From contig CAYXHP010000072.1 of NCBI GenBank assembly GCA_964465015.1, positions 5,355-69,354 of the forward strand: 64,000 nucleotides of DNA, given 5' to 3'. Source of the DNA: an uncultured Gemmatimonadota bacterium. GTDB lineage: Bacteria; Gemmatimonadota; Gemmatimonadetes; Palauibacterales; Palauibacteraceae. Made by a program: the position numbers and the translations under genes. Shown piece by piece: positions 2,880 through 22,429 of this stretch (position 1 is the stretch's first letter; each line of letters opens with the position of its first letter). The notes under the pieces were generated by a model that saw nothing but the letters and a program-made list of their open reading frames with translations, had not been told where the DNA came from and ran no database searches.

Positions 2880-3091
2880 AGGCCCCCTCCTCGTAGTAAA
2901 TCCAGGATCATCGAACATATTTCGATTCTCGGCCGATCATTCGGTTCAATTTCGGTCTGAGAGCGCTTCATTTGGACGGCCCAATCCTTAAGAAAATCAG
3001 GTATGGAAGTTGCTATGCGAGTCGGCGGCAACTCCATGTGACGCTTGACTCTCATCCGAGTCGCGGCGTGCACAGAATCGGACGTAGATAC
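2880..3091 (+). promoter_or_regulatory. AT-rich upstream/promoter region of the curli locus (TTGACT -35-like hexamer at 3047-3052)
   Basis: GC drops sharply here (e.g. 'atatttcgattctcggccgatcattcggttcaatttcgg', 'aatccttaagaaaatcaggtatgg') in a roughly 70% GC background. The region sits directly upstream of csgE and contains TTGACT. Confidence 0.3.
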
Positions 3092-3661
3092 ATGGAGGGA
3101 GGCGCGGTGACCCATACCGTGGGAATCGGGTTCTCGGGCGCTATCCTTTTATTTTCGGCCTCTCTCCTCGTGGCCCAGCAGCCATCCGACGCACCGCGAT
3201 CGGACACCGTGACGCGCGTGGCAGCCGATTCCGACGCGGTTCTGGGCGTAACCTCGCTTCCACGCGAGGAGATTCCCGGCTACGCCGCCACGGCACGCTT
3301 CTTGGGCTCGTTGCACCGGCGAGACAATTCGCGTGCCGAGCCCGCCACAACCCGGAACGAGCTCTCCCTCGACCTCGTCGTGGATGAGACGCTCACCCCC
3401 ATGGGACGAGACTTCTTCCAGGCGTTCTACACGGCCTGGAAGGCCCCCGAGGGAGCGCCTACCTACGCCATACGGATCGGCGAGCAGCCGACGCCCGGCC
3501 TGTCCACCCGGATCGTCCTCTACCTGAACAACGAGCGGCTCCTGCAGTTCCCCCTGGTGAAGACGAGCCACGATTTCATCGAGGAGGTGGCGGGTCAGGC
3601 CGTTCGGTACATGCAGCAGCAGCTCCGGCAGCGCCTGTCGCCCGACGTCGAAGGATCCTGA
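3092..3661 (+). CDS. csgE: curli assembly/secretion specificity factor CsgE homolog
   Basis: It aligns to E. coli CsgE. The segment LDLVVDETLTPMGRDFFQAFYTAWK matches [24 protein letters not shown], and the IRIGEQPTP...LLQFPL...DF block matches INERPSARW...FQTFLFPLKRDF. There is an N-terminal signal peptide. The start is ambiguous: ATG at 3092, GTG at 3068 or GTG at 3107. Confidence 0.8.
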   Translation: MEGGAVTHTVGIGFSGAILLFSASLLVAQQPSDAPRSDTVTRVAADSDAVLGVTSLPREEIPGYAATARFLGSLHRRDNSRAEPATTRNELSLDLVVDETLTPMGRDFFQAFYTAWKAPEGAPTYAIRIGEQPTPGLSTRIVLYLNNERLLQFPLVKTSHDFIEEVAGQAVRYMQQQLRQRLSPDVEGS

Positions 3662-3704: not shown

Positions 3705-4148
3705 GTGAGCCCCGAGCGATCGATTCCGACTCTCGTGTCCGTCGCTGTCGTCACGCTACTGATGGCACTCCCGACGTCGGCTCGCGCCCAGGACCTGGTG
3801 TTCCAACCCCAGGTCACCGGGTTCGGCGCCGCGCCGGCGACGGTTCAGGTGAACCTGCAGCTGGCCCAGGCGCAGCAGGCCCAGCCGGACTTCTCTTCGT
3901 TCAACGATCCGCTGCAGAACTTCCAGCAGGACCTCCAGCGCCAGATCCTGAGCGGCCTGGCACAGCAGATCATCCAGTCGCAGTTCGGCGGCTCGTTCGG
4001 CCAGACCAACATCGACCTGGCGCAGCGCAGCACGTTCAACCTGGGCGACTTCATCGTCGACATCATCCCGGGTACCGATGCGCTCCAGATCCGGGTGGCC
4101 AACACCATCACGGGCAACTCGACCACCATATCCGTTCCGAAGTTCTGA
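3705..4148 (+). CDS. csgF: curli assembly protein CsgF homolog
   Basis: It has a signal peptide. The segment VFQPQVTGFGAAP...LQLAQAQQAQ...FQQDLQRQILSGL...GDFIVDIIPGTDALQIRVANTITGNSTTISVPKF parallels E. coli CsgF (FQFRNPNFGGNP...NSAQAQN...FTQAIQSQILGGL...NDYIVDI...LQLNVTDRKTGQTSTIQV...F). Confidence 0.85.
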   Translation: MSPERSIPTLVSVAVVTLLMALPTSARAQDLVFQPQVTGFGAAPATVQVNLQLAQAQQAQPDFSSFNDPLQNFQQDLQRQILSGLAQQIIQSQFGGSFGQTNIDLAQRSTFNLGDFIVDIIPGTDALQIRVANTITGNSTTISVPKF

Positions 4149-4205: not shown

Positions 4206-5579
4206 ATGAGGCGAGCGATCGGCCTCGGCACGGCGCTCCTCCTCGGAGCGGCGGGGTGCACGAACTACATGGCTCCCCTGCACACCGCCCCGCCGCGCCC
4301 GAACGGGTCCACGCCGGTGACGCGGGAGCTCCGCGAGCTCCCGGCGCCCAAGGAGAAGGTGGTGGCGGCGGTGTACCGGTTCCGGGACGAGACGGGCCAG
4401 TACAAGCCCAGCGCGAACGCGACCAGCTTCTCGACGGCCGTCACGCAGGGGGCGACGTCGATCCTGATCGATGCGCTCCAGACCTCCGGCTGGTTCGTGC
4501 CGATCGAGCGGGAGGACCTCTCCAACCTCCTGAACGAACGCCAGATCATCCAGCAGATCCGGCAGCAGTACGAGGGCGCGGCCAAAGACCAGCACCAGCT
4601 CCCGCCCCTCCTGTTCGCCGGCGTGATGCTCGAGGGCGGCATCATCGGCTACAACACGAACACGGTGACCGGCGGCGAGGCCGCCCGCTACTTCGGGGCG
4701 GGAGGCTCGGCCGTCTTCCACCAGGACCAGGTCACCGTCTACCTCCGGGCCGTTTCCACGCAGACGGGGCGCGTGCTGGAGAACGTCCACGCGACCAAGA
4801 CCATCCTCTCCCAGGAGGTCGAGGCGGGGATCTTCCGCTTCGTCGAGGCCAACCGGCTGCTCCAGTCCGACATCGGCTACAGCTACAACGAGCCCACCAC
4901 CGTCGCGGTCCGCGAGGCGATCGAGGAATCCGTACGCGCGCTGGTCGTGGAAGGGATCAAGGATGGCCTGTGGAGTCTCGCCGACTCCGCCGACTCGCGG
5001 AGCCCCGCGATCCTGGCCTACGAGCGTGACAAGAACCGGGCGCAGCGGACCGACGTGTTCGATCTGTTCCGGGGAGCGAGCCGCACGGGCTTCTCGCTCG
5101 GCCTGTGGGCGGGCGGTCAGAAGCTGGAGGGGAATTACCAGAACTCGCTCATCCGTCCGAGCGGAGGCCTCACGATCCGGCACTCCGTCTCGCCGAACGT
5201 CACGTTCGGCCTCGATGCCTCGGCCTGGCAGATCGCGGCCCGCAACGGCTTCCAGAGCACCGGCGCCTCGTTCGGGGGGAGCGCCCTCTACTACTTCCTG
5301 CCCGACGGCACGGCCACGCCTTACGTGCAGGTCGGCGCCGGGGCGCTAAAGGGCGACCTCATCTCGAGCGCCGGATCCGAGGGCCCGCTTCGCTGGCGGC
5401 CCTACATCTCGGCCGCCCTCGGAGTCGAGTACATGGTGCGTCCGGGAGCGGCGTTCGACCTGAAGCTCGAGAACCAGTACGCGGCCGAGGAAGGCATCGA
5501 CAACGTGGACGAGGGGGGGCTCAACGACTCCCTCTGGCGCCTCTCGGCCGGCTTCATCTTCTACTTGTCGCACTTCTGA
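4206..5579 (+). CDS. csgG: curli secretion channel lipoprotein CsgG with an extra C-terminal ~190-aa beta-barrel-like domain
   Basis: It has the lipobox LLGAAGC. Residues ~40-260 align along their length with E. coli CsgG (VAAVYRFRDETGQYKP, NLLNERQIIQQ, GGIIGYNTNTVTGGEAARYFGAG, TKTILSQEVEAGIFRF, SYNEPTTVAVREAIE). Residues ~265-457 are an additional domain with alternating hydrophobic beta-strand patterns and a C-terminal ...GFIFYLSHF (terminal Phe), like an OMP barrel. Confidence 0.9.
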   Translation: MRRAIGLGTALLLGAAGCTNYMAPLHTAPPRPNGSTPVTRELRELPAPKEKVVAAVYRFRDETGQYKPSANATSFSTAVTQGATSILIDALQTSGWFVPIEREDLSNLLNERQIIQQIRQQYEGAAKDQHQLPPLLFAGVMLEGGIIGYNTNTVTGGEAARYFGAGGSAVFHQDQVTVYLRAVSTQTGRVLENVHATKTILSQEVEAGIFRFVEANRLLQSDIGYSYNEPTTVAVREAIEESVRALVVEGIKDGLWSLADSADSRSPAILAYERDKNRAQRTDVFDLFRGASRTGFSLGLWAGGQKLEGNYQNSLIRPSGGLTIRHSVSPNVTFGLDASAWQIAARNGFQSTGASFGGSALYYFLPDGTATPYVQVGAGALKGDLISSAGSEGPLRWRPYISAALGVEYMVRPGAAFDLKLENQYAAEEGIDNVDEGGLNDSLWRLSAGFIFYLSHF

Positions 5580-5787
5580 CGTTCGTGTGGGGTGGTGGGG
5601 ACGTCCGTTCCAGCAACCGCAATCACCCGGGAGGACAACGGAGCTGAACTGACGAGCGACCGCGAGGTTCCGACCGGTGAGCCGGTCGGCGTGGGAGGAA
5701 CGCCGGGTTCCCGCGACGGCAAATAGGACGGCGCAGCCAGACGAGCGAGACGCAGTACCAGCGTTCACTCAGAGCGGAGAGAACAGC

Positions 5788-6741
5788 ATGCGTAAGCTCC
5801 AAGCACTCTTACTGGCCGGCGTCGTCGGACTGTTCCTGACGGCTGTCCCGGCGTATGGGCAGAGCAATACGGCCCACACGACCCAGACCGGGGACAACCT
5901 GAGCGCCGAGACGCACCAGCCCGGCGCCAGCAACCTGGCGAACATCGTGCAGGCCAACGACAACACGGGGCCGGAGGTGGCCTTCATTCGCCAGGCAGGG
6001 AACCACAACCAGGCCTTCATCCAGCAGAGCCAGACCGGTGGCGGCGGGATCACGCCTCCGCTGGAAGCGAGCATTCGGCAGTCCGGCGACTACAACGTCG
6101 CCCATCAGTCCGAGACCGCTCCCAGTTCGAATGCCGAGCAGATCCAGGAGGCGGTTCAGTCGGGCAACCACAACCGCTCCACGCAGACCATCGAGCACGG
6201 CTACACGATCCACCAGACCGTGCATCAGTCCGGTGACAACAACGTGGCGCGGCAGACCATCGGCGCAGACGGAAACGGACATATCAACGCCGACATCGTC
6301 CAGAGCGGAAACGGCAACACAGCCACGCAGGATCAGGCGGGCCTGAACGACAACGCGAGCATCACTCAGCCGGGCAACAACAACGTCGCGCACCAGCACC
6401 AGACCGGTCCGGCGTTCAGCCACGTGAATACGGCCGAGATCCGGCAGTCGGGGAATTCCAACACGGCGGTTCAGAACCAGACCATGGTCTCCGCCGCAGC
6501 CCCGCCGCACTACAACTACGCCACGGCTCACCAGTCGGGAAGCTCTAACCACGCCACTCAGAACCAGAGCGGGTTCGATCTGAACGCCACGATCCTCCAG
6601 TCCGGCAACGGCAACGTGGCGACGCAGAGCCAGATGTCCGGGTCTCTCCTAATGTCGACGATCACCCAGTCCAGCAACAACAACGTCGCGCACACAACGC
6701 AGACGGGCACCAGCGACGTCGCGACGGTCACGCAGGGCTGA
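5788..6741 (+). CDS. csgA: curlin-repeat major subunit (CsgA-like), paralog 1
   Basis: The signal peptide MRKLQALLLAGVVGLFLTAVPAYGQ is followed by many imperfect curlin repeats of the type Q-x-G-x-x-N-x-A-x3-Q (e.g. IRQSGDYNVAHQ, VHQSGDNNVARQ, IVQSGNGNTATQ, ITQPGNNNVAHQ, ILQSGNGNVATQ, ITQSSNNNVAHTTQ). An RBS GGAGAG lies upstream. Confidence 0.85.
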   Translation: MRKLQALLLAGVVGLFLTAVPAYGQSNTAHTTQTGDNLSAETHQPGASNLANIVQANDNTGPEVAFIRQAGNHNQAFIQQSQTGGGGITPPLEASIRQSGDYNVAHQSETAPSSNAEQIQEAVQSGNHNRSTQTIEHGYTIHQTVHQSGDNNVARQTIGADGNGHINADIVQSGNGNTATQDQAGLNDNASITQPGNNNVAHQHQTGPAFSHVNTAEIRQSGNSNTAVQNQTMVSAAAPPHYNYATAHQSGSSNHATQNQSGFDLNATILQSGNGNVATQSQMSGSLLMSTITQSSNNNVAHTTQTGTSDVATVTQG

Positions 6742-6769: not shown

Positions 6770-7570
6770 ATGCGTAAGCTCCAGGCACTCTTGCTGGCCG
6801 GCGTCGTCGGACTCTTCCTGACGGCCGTGCCGACCTTCGCGCAGAGCAATACGGCGACTGTCAACCAAACCGGTGACAATCTCACCGCCGAGGCCCACCA
6901 GCCGGGCGCCAGCAACCTGGCCAATATCATGCAGGCCAACGATAACACGGGCCCGGTAACAGCCTTCATCAGGCAGGCCGGAAGTCACAACAAAGCCTTC
7001 ATCGATCAGAGCCAGACGGGTGGCGGAGGCATCACCCCTCCGCTCGAGGCCTCGATCAGGCAGCCCGGAAACTACAACGTCGCCCATCAGTTTGAGAACG
7101 CCCCAGGCTACAATCAGGGGCAGACCCAGGAGGCCGTGCAGTCGGGCGACCACAATACCTCTAACCAGACGATCGATCATGGCTGGGGGATTCACCAGTC
7201 CGTGAACCAGTCGGGAAACGACAACGTGGCTCGTCAAACCGTAGATGGTAGTGGGGTCGGGAATCTGGTCTCGAGTATCATCCAGTCCGGAAATGGGAAC
7301 ACCGCCACGCAGGACCAGACTGGCCTGAATCAGACCGAGAACGCGAAGCAGTCGGGCAACAACAACGTCGCGCATCAGTATCAGACAGGGCCAGGCGCAT
7401 ACAGCCACCTTAACCTGGAGACCATTCTCCAGTCGGGGAATGCCAACCTCGCGGCTCAGCACCAGATGGGTCTGGACCTGACCTCGACGGTCACCCAGTC
7501 CAGCAACGGCAACGTCGCGCACACGACACAGACGGGAACCAACGACGTCGCGACGGTCACGCAGGGGTGA
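6770..7570 (+). CDS. csgA: curlin-repeat major subunit (CsgA-like), paralog 2 (tandem duplicate)
   Basis: The signal peptide and the C-terminal ...TNDVATVTQG are nearly identical to paralog 1, also at the DNA level. It has the same curlin repeat structure. An RBS GGAGG lies 8 nt upstream of the ATG. Confidence 0.85.
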   Translation: MRKLQALLLAGVVGLFLTAVPTFAQSNTATVNQTGDNLTAEAHQPGASNLANIMQANDNTGPVTAFIRQAGSHNKAFIDQSQTGGGGITPPLEASIRQPGNYNVAHQFENAPGYNQGQTQEAVQSGDHNTSNQTIDHGWGIHQSVNQSGNDNVARQTVDGSGVGNLVSSIIQSGNGNTATQDQTGLNQTENAKQSGNNNVAHQYQTGPGAYSHLNLETILQSGNANLAAQHQMGLDLTSTVTQSSNGNVAHTTQTGTNDVATVTQG

Positions 7571-7715: not shown

Positions 7716-8372
7716 ATGAGACGGTTCCTACAGGTGACCCGCCCGACGAGGCTGGCTTGCGCGGCCATGGTGGCCGTCGCGGTTGGCCCGGGGCTCTCCG
7801 GCGCGGCGGCGCAGCAGACCGGCGGCGCGTACATCACGCAGGCGACCTCGCCGGAGACCGTGCTGCCCAGGTCGACGAGCCCCGACCAGCAGGCGACCGC
7901 CCTGTGGCCCCAGCTCGCCTGCTTGGGACTCGGAGCCGCCGGAGCCTCTTGCGATCTCCGCAGCTCGGCGGGTCCGCCGGCGGGCGGCTTCCGGAACTTC
8001 GTCGCCCTCGTGCAGGCCGGCAGCGGCAACTTCATCGCCACGGTCCAGGCGGGCGGCACGGGCAACCAGATCCAGGCGAGCCAGACCGGGGACAACAACA
8101 CGCTGTACGCGGATCAGCTGGGAAGCGACAACCTCCTGGGCGTGCGCCTGGTCGGCAACGACAACACGCTGCACTCGTCGCAACACGGCAGCGGCAACCA
8201 GTACCTGTTCAGCTTCGAAGGCAACTCCCTGAACCACAACCTCCTGCAGGAGGGAGACAACCTGCGGGCGGTGCAGATCGGCGTGGGGACGCTGCCGTTC
8301 AGCATCGAGCAGCTCGGTCACGACATGGAGATCCGGATCGTGCACGACCCCCTGAGCGGATGGCCGCGATGA
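7716..8372 (+). CDS. curlin-repeat protein with a distinct Cys-containing N-terminal domain (CsgB-like nucleator candidate)
   Basis: An RBS GAGGAG precedes the ATG. After the signal peptide there is a ~90-aa N-domain with cysteines (LACLGLGAAGASCDL). This is followed by curlin-type repeats: ALVQAGSGNFIATVQAGGTGNQIQASQTGDNNTLYADQLGSDNLLGVRLVGNDNTLHSSQHGSGNQYLFSFEGNS. Confidence 0.75.
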   Translation: MRRFLQVTRPTRLACAAMVAVAVGPGLSGAAAQQTGGAYITQATSPETVLPRSTSPDQQATALWPQLACLGLGAAGASCDLRSSAGPPAGGFRNFVALVQAGSGNFIATVQAGGTGNQIQASQTGDNNTLYADQLGSDNLLGVRLVGNDNTLHSSQHGSGNQYLFSFEGNSLNHNLLQEGDNLRAVQIGVGTLPFSIEQLGHDMEIRIVHDPLSGWPR

Positions 8373-9040
8373 GAGCTGACACAGTCAGACACGGACGCAG
8401 GAACAAGGCGGGCCTCCGGGGCCCCGCCGGCCTCCTGCCGCTGGCCCTCGCCCTCGCGACGCTGGCCGGCTGCAAGACCCCGACGACCGGACCCACGGCG
8501 ACGGGTGCCATCCAGGGTCGGGTCCTCAACGACAGCACCGGGTCGCCCGTGGCCGGAGCCTCGATCACCACGAATCCGCCCACCAGCGCGCCGGTCTCCG
8601 GCGCGGACGGGACGTTTGAGCTTCCGGACCTGGACACCGGGGAGTATTCCATCTCGGCCAGGAAGTCCGGTTTCTCGTCCGCCACCGTCTCGGTCTCGGT
8701 CGAGAAGGGAAAGACCACCGACGCCACCATCCTCCTCCCGCCCACCAGCTCGAAGTCGGACGTGCTTAACGTCGAGATCGATGATGTGCGCACCAGCACG
8801 CCAGCGCCCGATTCAGTGTTCACGGAGGTCGAGTACGTCGCCAAGAACGTGTCGCAGGACACGCTGGCCGAGTACAACATCGTCTTCAACATCTTCCTGC
8901 CGGGAAAAGTGCTGAAGCAGGAAGAGACGGGAGAGGATCTCCATCCAGACCAGCAGCACGTGGGTGATTTCCGGAAGTATGTCGGAGACACGACACCGGA
9001 CTCGGTCCGCGTCGGCGACATCTACACCCGGCCGACCTGA
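8360..9040 (+). CDS. lipoprotein with a carboxypeptidase-regulatory-like (CarbopepD_reg / transthyretin-like beta-sandwich) domain, coupled to the curli locus
   Basis: In-frame ATGs at 8360 and 8369 overlap the stop (8370-8372) of the preceding curlin gene. It has a lipobox LATLAGC. The segment GAIQGRVLNDSTGSPVAGASITT...GADGTFELPDLDTGEYSISARKSGF...VSVEKGKTTDATILL matches the CarbopepD_reg pattern. Confidence 0.65.
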   Translation: MAAMRADTVRHGRRNKAGLRGPAGLLPLALALATLAGCKTPTTGPTATGAIQGRVLNDSTGSPVAGASITTNPPTSAPVSGADGTFELPDLDTGEYSISARKSGFSSATVSVSVEKGKTTDATILLPPTSSKSDVLNVEIDDVRTSTPAPDSVFTEVEYVAKNVSQDTLAEYNIVFNIFLPGKVLKQEETGEDLHPDQQHVGDFRKYVGDTTPDSVRVGDIYTRPT

Positions 9041-9217
9041 CGCCGCTCCACCCGTCGCCTCGCCCGTCGCTCACCGGCAGGCCTTGACGCCGATCCTCCC
9101 TCCCGGACATTTCAGGAGTACTTTCTACGGCCCCACCCGGACCGCGACCCACCAGGCTCGACCAGAGCCGTGGTCGGTCGGTGTCCCGGGAATCCGCGAC
9201 AGCCTCGAGGGAGGCGC

Positions 9218-10168
9218 ATGGTGAGCGTCCTCGACGCCATCGGCGGCACCACCCTGGTCCGCCTGGCCCGCGTCGTACCTCCGGGCTGTGCCGATGTGCG
9301 GGTGAAGCTGGAGTGGGAGAACCCCACCGGGAGCTTCAAGGACCGCATGGCTCGCGCGCTGATCGAGCGGGCGGAAGCCGACGGCCGCCTGGAGCCCGGC
9401 GGCTCCGTCCTCGAGTACACGGGCGGCTCCACCGGCACCTCCCTCGCCCTGGTGTGCGCCGCGAAGGGCTACCGGCTCCGCATCGTCACCTCCGACGCGT
9501 TCAGCCGGGAGAAGCTGGACCACATGGCCGCGCTCGGGGCCGAGCTCACGCTGGTGCCGAGCGAGGGCGGCAAGACCACGAAGAAGCTGATCCTCGACAT
9601 GGTCGAGAGGGCCCGGGAGATGAGCCGCGAGCCAGGCACCTACTGGACCGACCAGCTCCACAACGAGGACACGATCGCCGGCTACCTGCCGCTCGGCGAG
9701 GAAATCTGGGACCAGACGAAGGGAAAGGTGGACGCGTTCGTGCACTGCGTGGGCACGGCGGCCTCCTCGCGCGGGGTCGCCACCGCGCTCAAGCGCTACG
9801 ACGCCGACGTCGAGCTCGTGGCCGTGGAGCCGGCCGAGTCCCCGGTCCTGTCGGGCGGTGAGCCACATCCCCACGAGATCGAAGGGGTGGGGATCGGCTA
9901 CACGCCCCCGCTGTTCGACCCGGCGCTCGTGGACGGCATCGAGGCGGTGGAGACCGAGGAGGCGAAGGCGATGGCCCGCCGGCTGGCGCGCGAGGAGGGG
10001 CTGTTCGCCGGCACGTCGTCGGGCGCCAACGTGATCGCCGCGCTCCGCGTGGGCCGGCGGCTGGGACCGGGAGCCACGGTGGTCACGCTCATGTGCGACT
10101 CCGGTCTCAAGTACCTGAGCACCGACGTGTACCGGACGGCGGAGGGGAGCCAGCCATGGAGCGAGTGA
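9218..10168 (+). CDS. PLP-dependent cysteine synthase family protein (CysK/CysM-like)
   Basis: It has the Lys-PLP motif GSFKDRMA and the glycine-rich GTSSGAN loop. The length and fold pattern fit the family. Confidence 0.8.
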   Translation: MVSVLDAIGGTTLVRLARVVPPGCADVRVKLEWENPTGSFKDRMARALIERAEADGRLEPGGSVLEYTGGSTGTSLALVCAAKGYRLRIVTSDAFSREKLDHMAALGAELTLVPSEGGKTTKKLILDMVERAREMSREPGTYWTDQLHNEDTIAGYLPLGEEIWDQTKGKVDAFVHCVGTAASSRGVATALKRYDADVELVAVEPAESPVLSGGEPHPHEIEGVGIGYTPPLFDPALVDGIEAVETEEAKAMARRLAREEGLFAGTSSGANVIAALRVGRRLGPGATVVTLMCDSGLKYLSTDVYRTAEGSQPWSE

Positions 10169-20554: not shown

Positions 20555-22429
20555 TCAGCGCGCCGGTGGAGACGCCCCTTCCGCCACGGGCTCGAGCAGC
20601 CAGAACTGGGTAGAGTAGGACACCACGGTGAAGGCGATGGCGCGGCCGTCGGGCGAGACGGCCGGCTGCGTCTTGTCGCTGGGATCGGTGGTCACCTGCG
20701 TGACCGCACCGCCTTGGGCCGGAACCCGGAAGACCTGGAAGTGCCCGTCGTCCGCCTGCTGGATGAAGGCCACCCAGCGGAAGTCCGGCGCCGCCCCGAT
20801 GCCCGAGAACAGCTGCTCGCTCCTGAAGCGGTGGACCAGGCGTGGAGAGCCCCCGCCCCGCGCCACGACGTAGATCGCACGGCGGTTCAGCCCCTCGGCG
20901 GCGTCGAACACCAGGCTGTCGGATCCCCCGGCCCACTGCACCTGGTCCACCTGTCCGCCCAGTCCCTCGATCGTCACGCGGCGGGCCTTCCTCGTCACCT
21001 GCCCCGTGGCTGGATCGATCCCCAGCACGAAGGCGACCCCGCGCCAGCGGCCGTCCTCTCGCACCTCCGTCCCGTACGTGATCCAGCGCCCATCGGGCGA
21101 CCAGCGAGGCCAGCCCGTCTCGTGGCCCCCTCGCGTGATCGGCCAGGCCGCTTTCGACCCATCGGCCGGCTTCAGCCACACGTCGTCGAGGCCATCGGCG
21201 TGGGAGTGCAGGACGATCCACCGGCCGTCGGGCGACCAGTCCAGGCTCTGGTCTTCGGCCGGCGAGGCTCGGACCACGGCATCGGGTCGGTCGGCGGGCG
21301 CCGCACGGACTACCCGCACCGTGCCCAGGTCCTGCGCGATGTCCGGGTACCCGAAGTCGTCGACCTTCCGTCGCCAGGTGCCGAAGGTGAAGGCGACCGT
21401 CGACCCGTCGGGGCTCCAGGAGGGCGTCTCCGACTGGAACTCGGTGAGCTGACGTGGCACACCGCCGGTCGCCGACACGACCGAGAGGGTCACCCGGTAG
21501 TCCTGGACGCCGAACAGGACGCGGCCGTCGCGCGTCACCGAGGGCATGTAGCTGTCCCTCGCGAAGCGGGTGAGGACCCGTGAAGGGCCGCCGGCTGCCG
21601 GCCGAGCCCGGAGATCCAGCGTGCCCCGATCGTTGGGGGATCCGTAGTAGAGCGTGCGGCCGTCGGGGGAGAAGGCGAGCGGGCCGTAGGCGGGCTCGTC
21701 TCCCGGGCCCGGATCGGAGCCGCACGGTCGGCTGATGCGCGGCGTCCCATCCTCCACGGCAAGGCACGTCACGGCGCCGCCGCCCGGGGACCACGCCGGG
21801 TAGGAGAGCGCCGTCGGGGCCGGCCTCAGCCGGCCCGCGGAGGCGTCGGAGGCCGCGATCCACAGGGCGGAGCCGTCCTTCCAGGGCAGTGTGCCCGCCA
21901 CCTTGGATCCATCGGACGACCACGCCAGGCCCTCGGCCAGGTCCGGATCCACCCGCACGGTGTCACCCTCCGGCGTCACGGCCGGGACGGGACCGCTCCA
22001 CAGCCGGGCGCGCGCTCCGCTCGGGACGGCGAAGCTCCACCACGCCCATCGCCCCCGACCGTCCATCTCCCGCGCGACCACGCGCCGAGCATCCGGGAGC
22101 CAGGCGATGAAAGGGATGCGCCGCGCCGCCGGGCCGAGGGTCGTGACCGGACCGCTGGCCGCGCGCACCAGGAGCAGGTGGTCTCCCGACGTGTAGGCGA
22201 GCCACTCGCCGTCCGGGGAGATGGCGCCGATCGGATCCCGGTAGCCCACCGGACCCATCTGGCGCGCGACGGCGACCAGGCGCAGGCCCGCGGCCGCCGG
22301 GAGCCCGTCACCACCCTCCTGCGCCGCCGCCGAACGCGGGACGGCCGGGGCGATGGCCGCCGCCACGGTGACGATGGCCAGTGCGATGGTGCCGAGGGGG
22401 GTCGTCCAGCCACGCATGGTCGGCACCAT
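20555..22429 (-). CDS. TolB-like WD40/PD40 beta-propeller periplasmic protein
   Basis: It has a signal peptide and many PD40-type repeats (SPDG..LAYTS, SPDGRTLYY, SWSPDGSTVAF, WSPDGRWIVL, SPDGRWITYG, SPDGRAIAFT). Confidence 0.8.
   Translation of the reverse strand: MVPTMRGWTTPLGTIALAIVTVAAAIAPAVPRSAAAQEGGDGLPAAAGLRLVAVARQMGPVGYRDPIGAISPDGEWLAYTSGDHLLLVRAASGPVTTLGPAARRIPFIAWLPDARRVVAREMDGRGRWAWWSFAVPSGARARLWSGPVPAVTPEGDTVRVDPDLAEGLAWSSDGSKVAGTLPWKDGSALWIAASDASAGRLRPAPTALSYPAWSPGGGAVTCLAVEDGTPRISRPCGSDPGPGDEPAYGPLAFSPDGRTLYYGSPNDRGTLDLRARPAAGGPSRVLTRFARDSYMPSVTRDGRVLFGVQDYRVTLSVVSATGGVPRQLTEFQSETPSWSPDGSTVAFTFGTWRRKVDDFGYPDIAQDLGTVRVVRAAPADRPDAVVRASPAEDQSLDWSPDGRWIVLHSHADGLDDVWLKPADGSKAAWPITRGGHETGWPRWSPDGRWITYGTEVREDGRWRGVAFVLGIDPATGQVTRKARRVTIEGLGGQVDQVQWAGGSDSLVFDAAEGLNRRAIYVVARGGGSPRLVHRFRSEQLFSGIGAAPDFRWVAFIQQADDGHFQVFRVPAQGGAVTQVTTDPSDKTQPAVSPDGRAIAFTVVSYSTQFWLLEPVAEGASPPAR

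Follow-up and report, generated by a model that had tools for sequence, protein, structure and literature searches.

The predicted lipoprotein encoded at positions 8369–9040 of a 64-kilobase (kb) stretch of contig CAYXHP010000072.1, from an uncultured Gemmatimonadota bacterium (this whole stretch is called the window, and positions refer to it), closes a curli gene cluster, and its full-length homologs were found only in such clusters, in 12 of 12 independent loci. The protein is very likely a dedicated component of the curli cluster, and probably an undescribed accessory part of the curli machinery. Taken together, the observations are best explained by a clade-specific outer-membrane accessory lipoprotein with a structural or adaptor role, a reading to which we give a probability of roughly 0.5. 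Curli biogenesis is a model for the controlled secretion of functional amyloid, and its parts list, CsgA to CsgH (with CsgI in E. coli), was derived almost wholly from Proteobacteria.

The linkage to curli genes was established in two forms of the protein. The initial annotation of this DNA had proposed a candidate new curli accessory factor and had named co-occurrence with csg genes as a check. All loci with a full-length homolog of the window protein (the short form: the window, L001, L003, L013, L016, L017, L022–L026 and L029) proved to be curli clusters. Loci L022–L026 and L029 were picked before their gene context was known, the former by the length of their contigs and L029 for its taxon label (Rubricoccaceae), and L001, L013, L016 and L017 were reached by searching proteins and metagenomes with the lipoprotein sequence or the profile of its family. 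Additionally, species-representative genomes were scanned with the window CsgG, which gave ten Bacteroidota/Balneolales loci, each with a CsgG of the long type; a lipidated CarboxypepD_reg protein is encoded in the cluster of every one of the seven loci that include downstream sequence. Locus L003, a Balneolales metagenome-assembled genome (MAG), holds a full-length homolog of 223 amino acids (aa) with 37% identity. The long form was curli-linked in 8/8 loci (L004, L008, L009, L010, L011, L012, L018 and L027), its gene lying directly after csgG or after csgB/csgH in every case and overlapping csgG by 14 nucleotides (nt) in L012. With 12/12 and 7/7 linkage, the accessory-factor proposal remains a good one.

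This association spans guanine-plus-cytosine (GC) contents of 30–72% and sequence identities down to 27%, and it persists through rearranged gene orders, with the lipoprotein gene preceding csgE in L003 and following csgG in Flavobacteriia and csgH elsewhere. As in the window, the gene is the last of the curli cluster in L001, L013, L016, L017, L022–L026 and L029. Because the genes that follow it vary between loci and are in many cases encoded on the other strand, the lipoprotein gene can be assigned to the curli cluster, whose 3' edge it marks. The initial annotation would have given way to homologs widespread outside curli loci; full-length homologs were all linked, whereas loci matching only the first domain of the protein (L014, L019–L021 and L028) contained no csg genes, and two of them adjoin flagellar genes.

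The lipoprotein gene and its parts are the following:

8369..9040, + strand: lipoprotein gene, 223 aa, identical to public protein P0001; final gene of the curli cluster
8369..8372, + strand: ATGA start/stop overlap, in the sequence, between the lipoprotein ATG and the TGA of the csgB-like gene (8370–8372)
8369..8473, + strand: signal peptide and lipobox L-A-G-C; a lipidated Cys35 is predicted to open the mature protein, followed by K-T-P-T-T-G-P
8510..8737, + strand: domain 1, a CarboxypepD_reg (transthyretin-like) beta-sandwich (PF13620, E 3e-15)
8747..9037, + strand: domain 2, about 95 aa, all-beta, a predicted immunoglobulin (Ig)-like sandwich; unannotated, it defines the short-form family

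A CarboxypepD_reg-type lipoprotein at the end of a curli cluster, as the initial annotation described it, was thus confirmed by the PF13620 match, the lipobox and the csg neighbors. The N-terminus comprises a basic n-region, a hydrophobic core and a lipobox (MRADTVRHGRRNKAGLRGPAGLLPLALALATLAGC, ending in L-A-G-C) that conforms to the pattern [LVI][ASTVI][GAS]C of a predicted Lgt/LspA substrate, and the lipobox Cys is invariant in 31/31 sequences of the family alignment. Domain 1 scored 56.8 bits against PF13620 (cut-off 32.3) and 50.0 bits against PF13715 (cut-off 32.2). Its AlphaFold2 (AF2) model, with a predicted local distance difference test (pLDDT) score of 70–84, was matched by Foldseek to the transthyretin-like domain of carboxypeptidase D (5aq0) with a template modeling (TM) score of 0.79–0.84 and a root-mean-square deviation of 1.7–2.0 Å, in agreement with a 7-stranded transthyretin-like beta-sandwich; 1qmu, 3mn8 and 6hif_Y were further structure matches. 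The AF2 runs used 3-sequence alignments and are of moderate confidence: the mean pLDDT is 67 over the full-length model and 74 in a separate run of domain 2, which was modeled with six strands. Domain 2 had no Pfam match at E<0.1, and a sequence search of the PDB returned no match; by Foldseek there was no significant PDB match either, the best being YajI (E 5e-3), SadB and DUF1425, which are small lipoprotein or Ig-like sandwiches. No PD40 propeller was found in the window protein, whose 223 aa hold two beta-sandwich domains.

The lipoprotein open reading frame (ORF) is a genuine gene under purifying selection, since its GC content at codon position 3 (0.85) is similar to that of adjacent genes and the ratio of nonsynonymous to synonymous substitution rates (dN/dS) against the L001 homolog, which is 74% identical, is 0.20 over 221 codons. 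Translation from another in-frame ATG, at 8360–8362, would yield 226 aa; public gene calls (P0001) start at the second ATG, 8369–8371, to give 223 aa, and the ORF has its own stop at 9038–9040. The start codon had been described as overlapping the stop of the csgB-like gene, and the ATGA at 8369–8372 bears this out, implying, as far as the sequence goes, translational coupling of the two genes. The initial annotation had named a lack of conservation of the overlap as a refutation, and on this point the result is less even. The junction GAGCGGATGGCCGC[G/A]ATGAGA is common to the window and L001, the nearest relative, and the ATGA overlap is kept only there; in L013 a gap of about 55 nt takes its place, and in further loci 16–150 nt or a csgH gene lies in between. 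Scans with Rfam and for promoters and terminators around the locus were uninformative, and the 64-kb window contains no rRNA.

Judged by their sequences, the proteins carrying domain 2 form a small, coherent and unannotated family. The domain 2 profile reached 36 clusters at E<=1e-3 among 1.84 billion representative proteins: 28 of 207–245 aa with domain 2 at the C-terminus, 6 fragments, one with three CarboxypepD_reg copies ahead of it and one Big_1/invasin repeat protein. A single-sequence homolog search had returned only the query and one relative, and the wider family was reached with alignment-based searches; the resulting 31-sequence alignment shows conserved motifs across both domains. 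Where members are named in their sources, they are called 'carboxypeptidase regulatory-like domain-containing protein' or, wrongly, 'TolB protein', and the organism labels of named members are Balneolales and Rubricoccaceae MAGs. Three candidates were rejected as family members or true matches. The profile matched P0031 (1183 aa), a Big_1/invasin repeat protein, in 8 stretches, a match taken as spurious or generic Ig-like, and P0004 and P0059 are multi-repeat CarboxypepD_reg proteins that have high profile scores and lack both domain 2 and neighboring csg genes. The genes of these two proteins (L014 543–2276; L028 8001–9128) adjoin flagellar clusters on low-GC metagenomic contigs.

The long form, of about 500 aa, consists of a lipobox, a CarboxypepD_reg domain, an fn3-like domain and a PD40/TolB-like propeller, and is found in Solirubrum, Arundinibacter, Altibacter and other Flavobacteriia. 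The propeller matches PF07676; with 72 bits it stays far below the TolB model's cut-off of 343 and is not TolB itself. In hhalign, the N-terminal module of the short form (signal peptide, Cys, linker and CarboxypepD_reg) aligns with that of the long form at a probability of 99.9%, E 4e-36 and 33% identity, and the family-specific motif TT-x-P-x-T otherwise occurs only in the long curli-linked forms. Homology between the second domains, i.e., domain 2 of the short form and the fn3-like domain of the long form, was rejected at an hhalign probability of 1.6%, despite an apparent extension in tblastn. Because the N-terminal module aligns across both forms while the second domains are unrelated, the conserved curli-linked unit would be the lipidated transthyretin-like N-terminal module, with C-terminal modules that vary by lineage. 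The long form of L027 is apparently split into a 328-aa CarboxypepD_reg/fn3 ORF (8001–8987) and a 125-aa PD40 ORF (9101–9478), which would reflect a frameshift, an assembly error or gene decay. The window itself encodes a 624-aa PD40/TolB-like propeller protein at 20555–22429 (− strand), unlinked to the curli cluster.

From the gene, its domains, its family and its neighbors we infer a membrane location, partners and a role. The protein would be lipid-anchored at the outer membrane as a clade-specific component of curli (type VIII) secretion in Rhodothermales/Balneolales-like bacteria, with the longer form in Bacteroidota. Its gene would be co-expressed with that of the csgB-like nucleator, with which it shares a 4-nt overlap in the window, and at the outer membrane the protein would serve the long CsgG, CsgF and the CsgB-like protein as a structural or adaptor partner, helping to position or retain the nucleator and the fiber at the cell surface, rather than as a soluble anti-amyloid chaperone of the CsgC/CsgH type. 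This reading is favored because the gene is tightly coupled to that of the nucleator or to csgG, because the lipoprotein coexists with CsgH and CsgF, because a constant anchor is combined with swappable modules, because an enlarged CsgG co-occurs with it throughout the sampled loci, and because PorE offers a precedent. The adaptor or anchor function, taken specifically, is plausible and should be held with some reserve.

The CsgG partner is unusual in its length, at 437–483 aa in the window, L001, L003–L012, L016–L018, L022–L025 and L027, compared with 277 aa for CsgG of E. coli. Each of these carries a C-terminal extension of about 190 aa; that of the window CsgG (aa 259–457) shows a weak match to the outer-membrane protein beta-barrel family PF13505 (E 0.0034) and an aromatic end (…YLSHF), and it may be an extra barrel fused onto the curli secretin. 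A bolder version of the adaptor reading would make the lipoprotein an eighth, unnamed core subunit of a distinct curli secretion architecture of the Fibrobacterota–Chlorobiota–Bacteroidota (FCB) group, docked on the CsgG extension and forming with CsgF a surface platform for the CsgB-like protein, the short and long forms being lineage versions of it; we regard this as speculative and rather improbable.

The residues after the lipobox Cys bear on the side of the membrane that the protein might face. The Bacteroidetes lipoprotein export signal (LES), which directs lipoproteins to the cell surface, is of the K-(D/E)2, Q-A-(D/E)2 or S-D-D type (SDDDD, SDDFE; PMC5080379). Among the long forms, 6/7 carry C-[NSTG]-E-[DE], counted from the lipobox Cys, in agreement with such a signal; among the short forms, K-[DE] is present in 21/31 and one or more acidic residues fall between +2 and +6 in 29/31, against 0/14 for the CsgG lipoproteins of the same loci. 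These residues hint at surface exposure in the relatives of the window protein. The window protein itself has no LES motif, as C-K-T-P-T-T contains no acidic residue at +2 to +6, and surface exposure is for this reason least supported for it.

Several points weigh against the adaptor reading. Of the 31 short forms, just 2 lack an acidic residue after the Cys, namely the window protein (CKTP) and its closest relative (CKSP), and most short forms have one acidic residue after the K and not K-(D/E)2, a partial match to the signal. For the CsgG extension the association is correlative, and all sampled FCB curli loci have a long CsgG. A CsgH gene is absent from the window, L001, L016 and L023, so that a chaperone role has room in these loci. 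Additionally, the functional statements draw on gene neighborhood, motifs and models of moderate confidence.

The room for a chaperone leads to the amyloid-control idea of the initial annotation, cast here as an outer-membrane-tethered guard, a functional analog of CsgC or CsgH whose beta-sandwich domains would face the periplasm beneath CsgG and block premature curlin polymerization. The genes of CsgC and CsgH, which are small all-beta proteins, come at the 3' end of curlin operons, and domain 2, a predicted Ig-like sandwich, has a similar size. The locus had been described as lacking both, and this holds for the window: the intergenic gaps are too small for a CsgC/CsgH-like ORF within the curli cluster, and a custom CsgH hidden Markov model (HMM), trained on six CsgH-like sequences from related loci, gave 0 matches at E<=1 across the 64 kb. 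The absence of CsgC/CsgH genes from the window, L001, L016 and L023 is what such a guard would fill; the lack of an acidic export-signal-like N-terminus in the window protein also fits a periplasm-facing anchor, and the transthyretin-fold protein YedX inhibits CsgA polymerization in vitro (PMC12925577). In half of the short-form loci, though (6/12: L003, L022, L024, L025, L026 and L029), and in the long-form locus L027, a CsgH homolog is encoded directly upstream of the lipoprotein gene, in curli loci of Balneolales or Rubricoccaceae type:

L003, 3985–4398: CsgH homolog
L022, 7613–7984: CsgH homolog
L024, 7438–7848: CsgH homolog
L025, 7565–7966: CsgH homolog
L026, 1913–2356: CsgH homolog
L027, 7620–7970: CsgH homolog
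L029, 2444–2821: CsgH homolog

Six of these were scanned with NF041112, and five passed at 37–56 bits (cut-off 35), with L003 just below at 30.8 bits; the L029 assignment is a precomputed PF21112 annotation. The lipoprotein had no Pfam or NCBIfam match to CsgC (NF007507) or CsgH (NF041112/PF21112), and CsgH homology of domain 2 was rejected by hhalign against the six CsgH-like proteins at a probability of 0.1%. In the weak Foldseek list for domain 2, from 350,542 PDB chains, CsgC ranked 5 (2xsk, E 0.026, TM 0.37) and CsgH ranked 14 (2n59, E 0.07, TM 0.34). The structural comparison that had been proposed thus gave weak fold similarity, with TM scores of 0.34–0.38 that are below fold-level significance, stand among generic Ig-like beta-sandwich matches and derive from a model with a pLDDT of 74. 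Charge sets the lipoprotein apart. CsgC and CsgH act through a positive surface, on average about 2 pH units above CsgA (Taylor et al. 2016, PMC4838910), and the CsgH-like proteins of the sister loci have isoelectric points (pI) 0.8–4 units above their own curlins; the mature window protein has a pI of 4.5 against 4.9–5.5 for its curlins, and the family is acidic throughout, with a median of 4.2, at or below the curlins. Moreover, what the short and long forms have in common is domain 1, and domain 2, the one of CsgC size, is not conserved between them. CsgC and CsgH are soluble, single-domain and positive, whereas the window protein has a lipobox and two domains, is acidic and belongs to a family that coexists with CsgH in many loci. 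With an adjacent CsgH in half of the loci, no profile homology and an acidic pI, the stand-in idea did not hold up; the evidence does not support the lipoprotein as a substitute for CsgC/CsgH, at least in general, and we consider the tethered guard unlikely. Fiber anchoring, which the initial annotation gave as the other role, may still apply.

Two further explanations dispense with a part in secretion. The protein could be a matrix or adhesion module displayed at the surface, binding exopolysaccharide, mature fibers or a substrate and so tying curli fibers to the cell or the matrix, with no effect on secretion or nucleation. Acidic export-signal-like N-termini in most members, above all the long forms (PMC5080379), and interchangeable C-terminal modules (Ig-like, or fn3 with propeller), as is usual for binding domains, would suit such a function, and the weak fold matches include the biofilm scaffold RbmA and pilin-type Ig domains. 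Set against this, no carbohydrate-binding or adhesin family scored above threshold, the acidic motif is absent from the window protein itself, and the strict operon placement, with overlaps with the csgB-like gene or with csgG (14 nt in L012), suggests a stoichiometric partner of the machinery; this explanation is quite doubtful. The protein could also be a CarboxypepD_reg envelope lipoprotein co-transcribed by chance and without any curli role, as CarboxypepD_reg domains are very common in these phyla and other such proteins occur in unrelated contexts (flagellar clusters, TonB-dependent receptors). Chance association is hard to reconcile with linkage in 12/12 short-form and 8/8 long-form loci over the ranges of GC content, identity and gene order given above, or with the purifying selection on the gene, and appears very improbable. 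A structural or adaptor lipoprotein of the curli machinery accordingly remains our preferred explanation.

Known systems offer partial parallels to the adaptor reading. The type IX secretion system needs PorE (PG1058), a lipoprotein of the outer membrane in which a CarboxypepD_reg domain is joined by a TolB-like propeller (PMC5053529). As with the long curli-linked form, PorE combines these two domain types in a Bacteroidota lipoprotein accessory to secretion; it differs in its TPR and peptidoglycan-binding OmpA_C domains and in its domain order, the window short form has no propeller, and the likeness is one of shared generic domains. CsgF, a surface-exposed protein that keeps CsgB at the CsgG pore and whose gene belongs to the same cluster, would be analogous in the proposed retention of the nucleator, but its sequence and fold are unrelated; since every locus has a normal CsgF, the lipoprotein would be additional to it and not a replacement. 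Domain 1 shares its Pfam family (PF13620/PF13715) and fold with the N-terminal extension of the SusC/RagA TonB-dependent transporters and with the transthyretin-like domains of carboxypeptidase D, whereas the window protein is a free-standing lipoprotein that lacks plug, barrel and peptidase domains. Transthyretin and YedX have a prealbumin/transthyretin-like beta-sandwich and demonstrated amyloid inhibition (PMC12925577), but they belong to another family, are either cytoplasmic or of host origin, and have their genes outside csg operons; a Pfam scan of the window protein gave no match to PF00576.

Full-text literature searches found no paper linking curli with a CarboxypepD_reg or TolB-like lipoprotein. 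In the curli operon survey of Dueholm et al., Bacteroidetes are noted only for loss of csgC and csgD, and CsgH is the sole extra gene (PMC3521004); Sleutel et al. do not discuss the lipoprotein (PMC10192328). Curli clusters with an additional conserved lipoprotein are therefore newly recognized, while its domain 1 is an ordinary member of PF13620 and the ~95-aa domain 2 defines a new, unannotated domain family. As a whole, the protein falls outside the CsgC/H, TolB, PorE, SusC and transthyretin families. The operon-linked lipoprotein and the enlarged CsgG suggest that non-proteobacterial curli machines differ in their outer-membrane build, and the lipoprotein is a testable candidate for fiber nucleation or anchoring in phyla abundant in soil, marine settings and the gut. 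The cultured carriers of the long form (Solirubrum puertoriconensis, Arundinibacter roseus and Altibacter lentus) make genetics feasible.

The remainder of the curli cluster, identified with Pfam and NCBIfam models, lies upstream of the lipoprotein gene on the + strand with small gaps, in the order csgE-csgF-csgG-curlin-curlin-csgB-like-lipoprotein:

2972..3661, + strand: CsgE (PF10627, E 5.6e-15); start uncertain, TTG 2972 or ATG 3089
3705..4148, + strand: CsgF (PF10614, E 4.4e-25)
4206..5579, + strand: long CsgG, 457 aa (PF03783, E 1.4e-63, aa 45–258), with the C-terminal extension of about 190 aa
5677..6741, + strand: curlin 1, 354 aa from GTG 5677, with the signal-peptide Met near 5788 (PF07012, E 1.9e-16)
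6770..7570, + strand: curlin 2, 266 aa (PF07012, E 6.7e-12)
7716..8372, + strand: csgB-like curlin, 218 aa (Curlin_rpt and CsgB models), directly upstream of and overlapping the lipoprotein gene

The window lineage has a GC content of 71%, and its nearest CsgG beyond that of L001 is 51% identical. A csgB-like homolog also stands before the lipoprotein gene in L001, L013, L016 and L004. The window CsgB-like protein (7716–8372) scores only marginally for curlin repeats, at 20.2 bits where the cut-off is 20.7. Its N-terminal part contains three Cys, and its C-terminal stretch of about 60 aa is 52% identical to that of L013 and may be the part that engages a partner.

CsgE varies in its domain content among the relatives, with an extra N-terminal DUF4168 domain in L003 (444 aa, 5241–6575) and a LysM domain in L022 (3752–4504). 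In Flavobacteriia, the custom CsgH HMM matched the N-terminal part of 250–263-aa ORFs annotated as 'CsgE' (E 1e-7 to 8e-15), which suggests a putative CsgH–CsgE fusion protein in this group; CsgH sub-families in Bacteroidetes have already been mentioned (Taylor 2016, PMC4838910). The matching ORFs are:

L009, 1376–2173: 'CsgE' ORF with CsgH match
L010/L011, 8802–9587: 'CsgE' ORF with CsgH match
L012, 8696–9562: 'CsgE' ORF with CsgH match
L018, 7397–8122: 'CsgE' ORF with CsgH match

The signal peptides of curlins 1 and 2 (5785–5850 and 6770–6835) are near identical (MRKLQALLLAGVVGLFLTAVP), and this near identity suggests that the tandem duplication of the two window curlins may be recent. Their repeats are unusually rich in His, with 16 His residues in one window curlin and 10 in the other.

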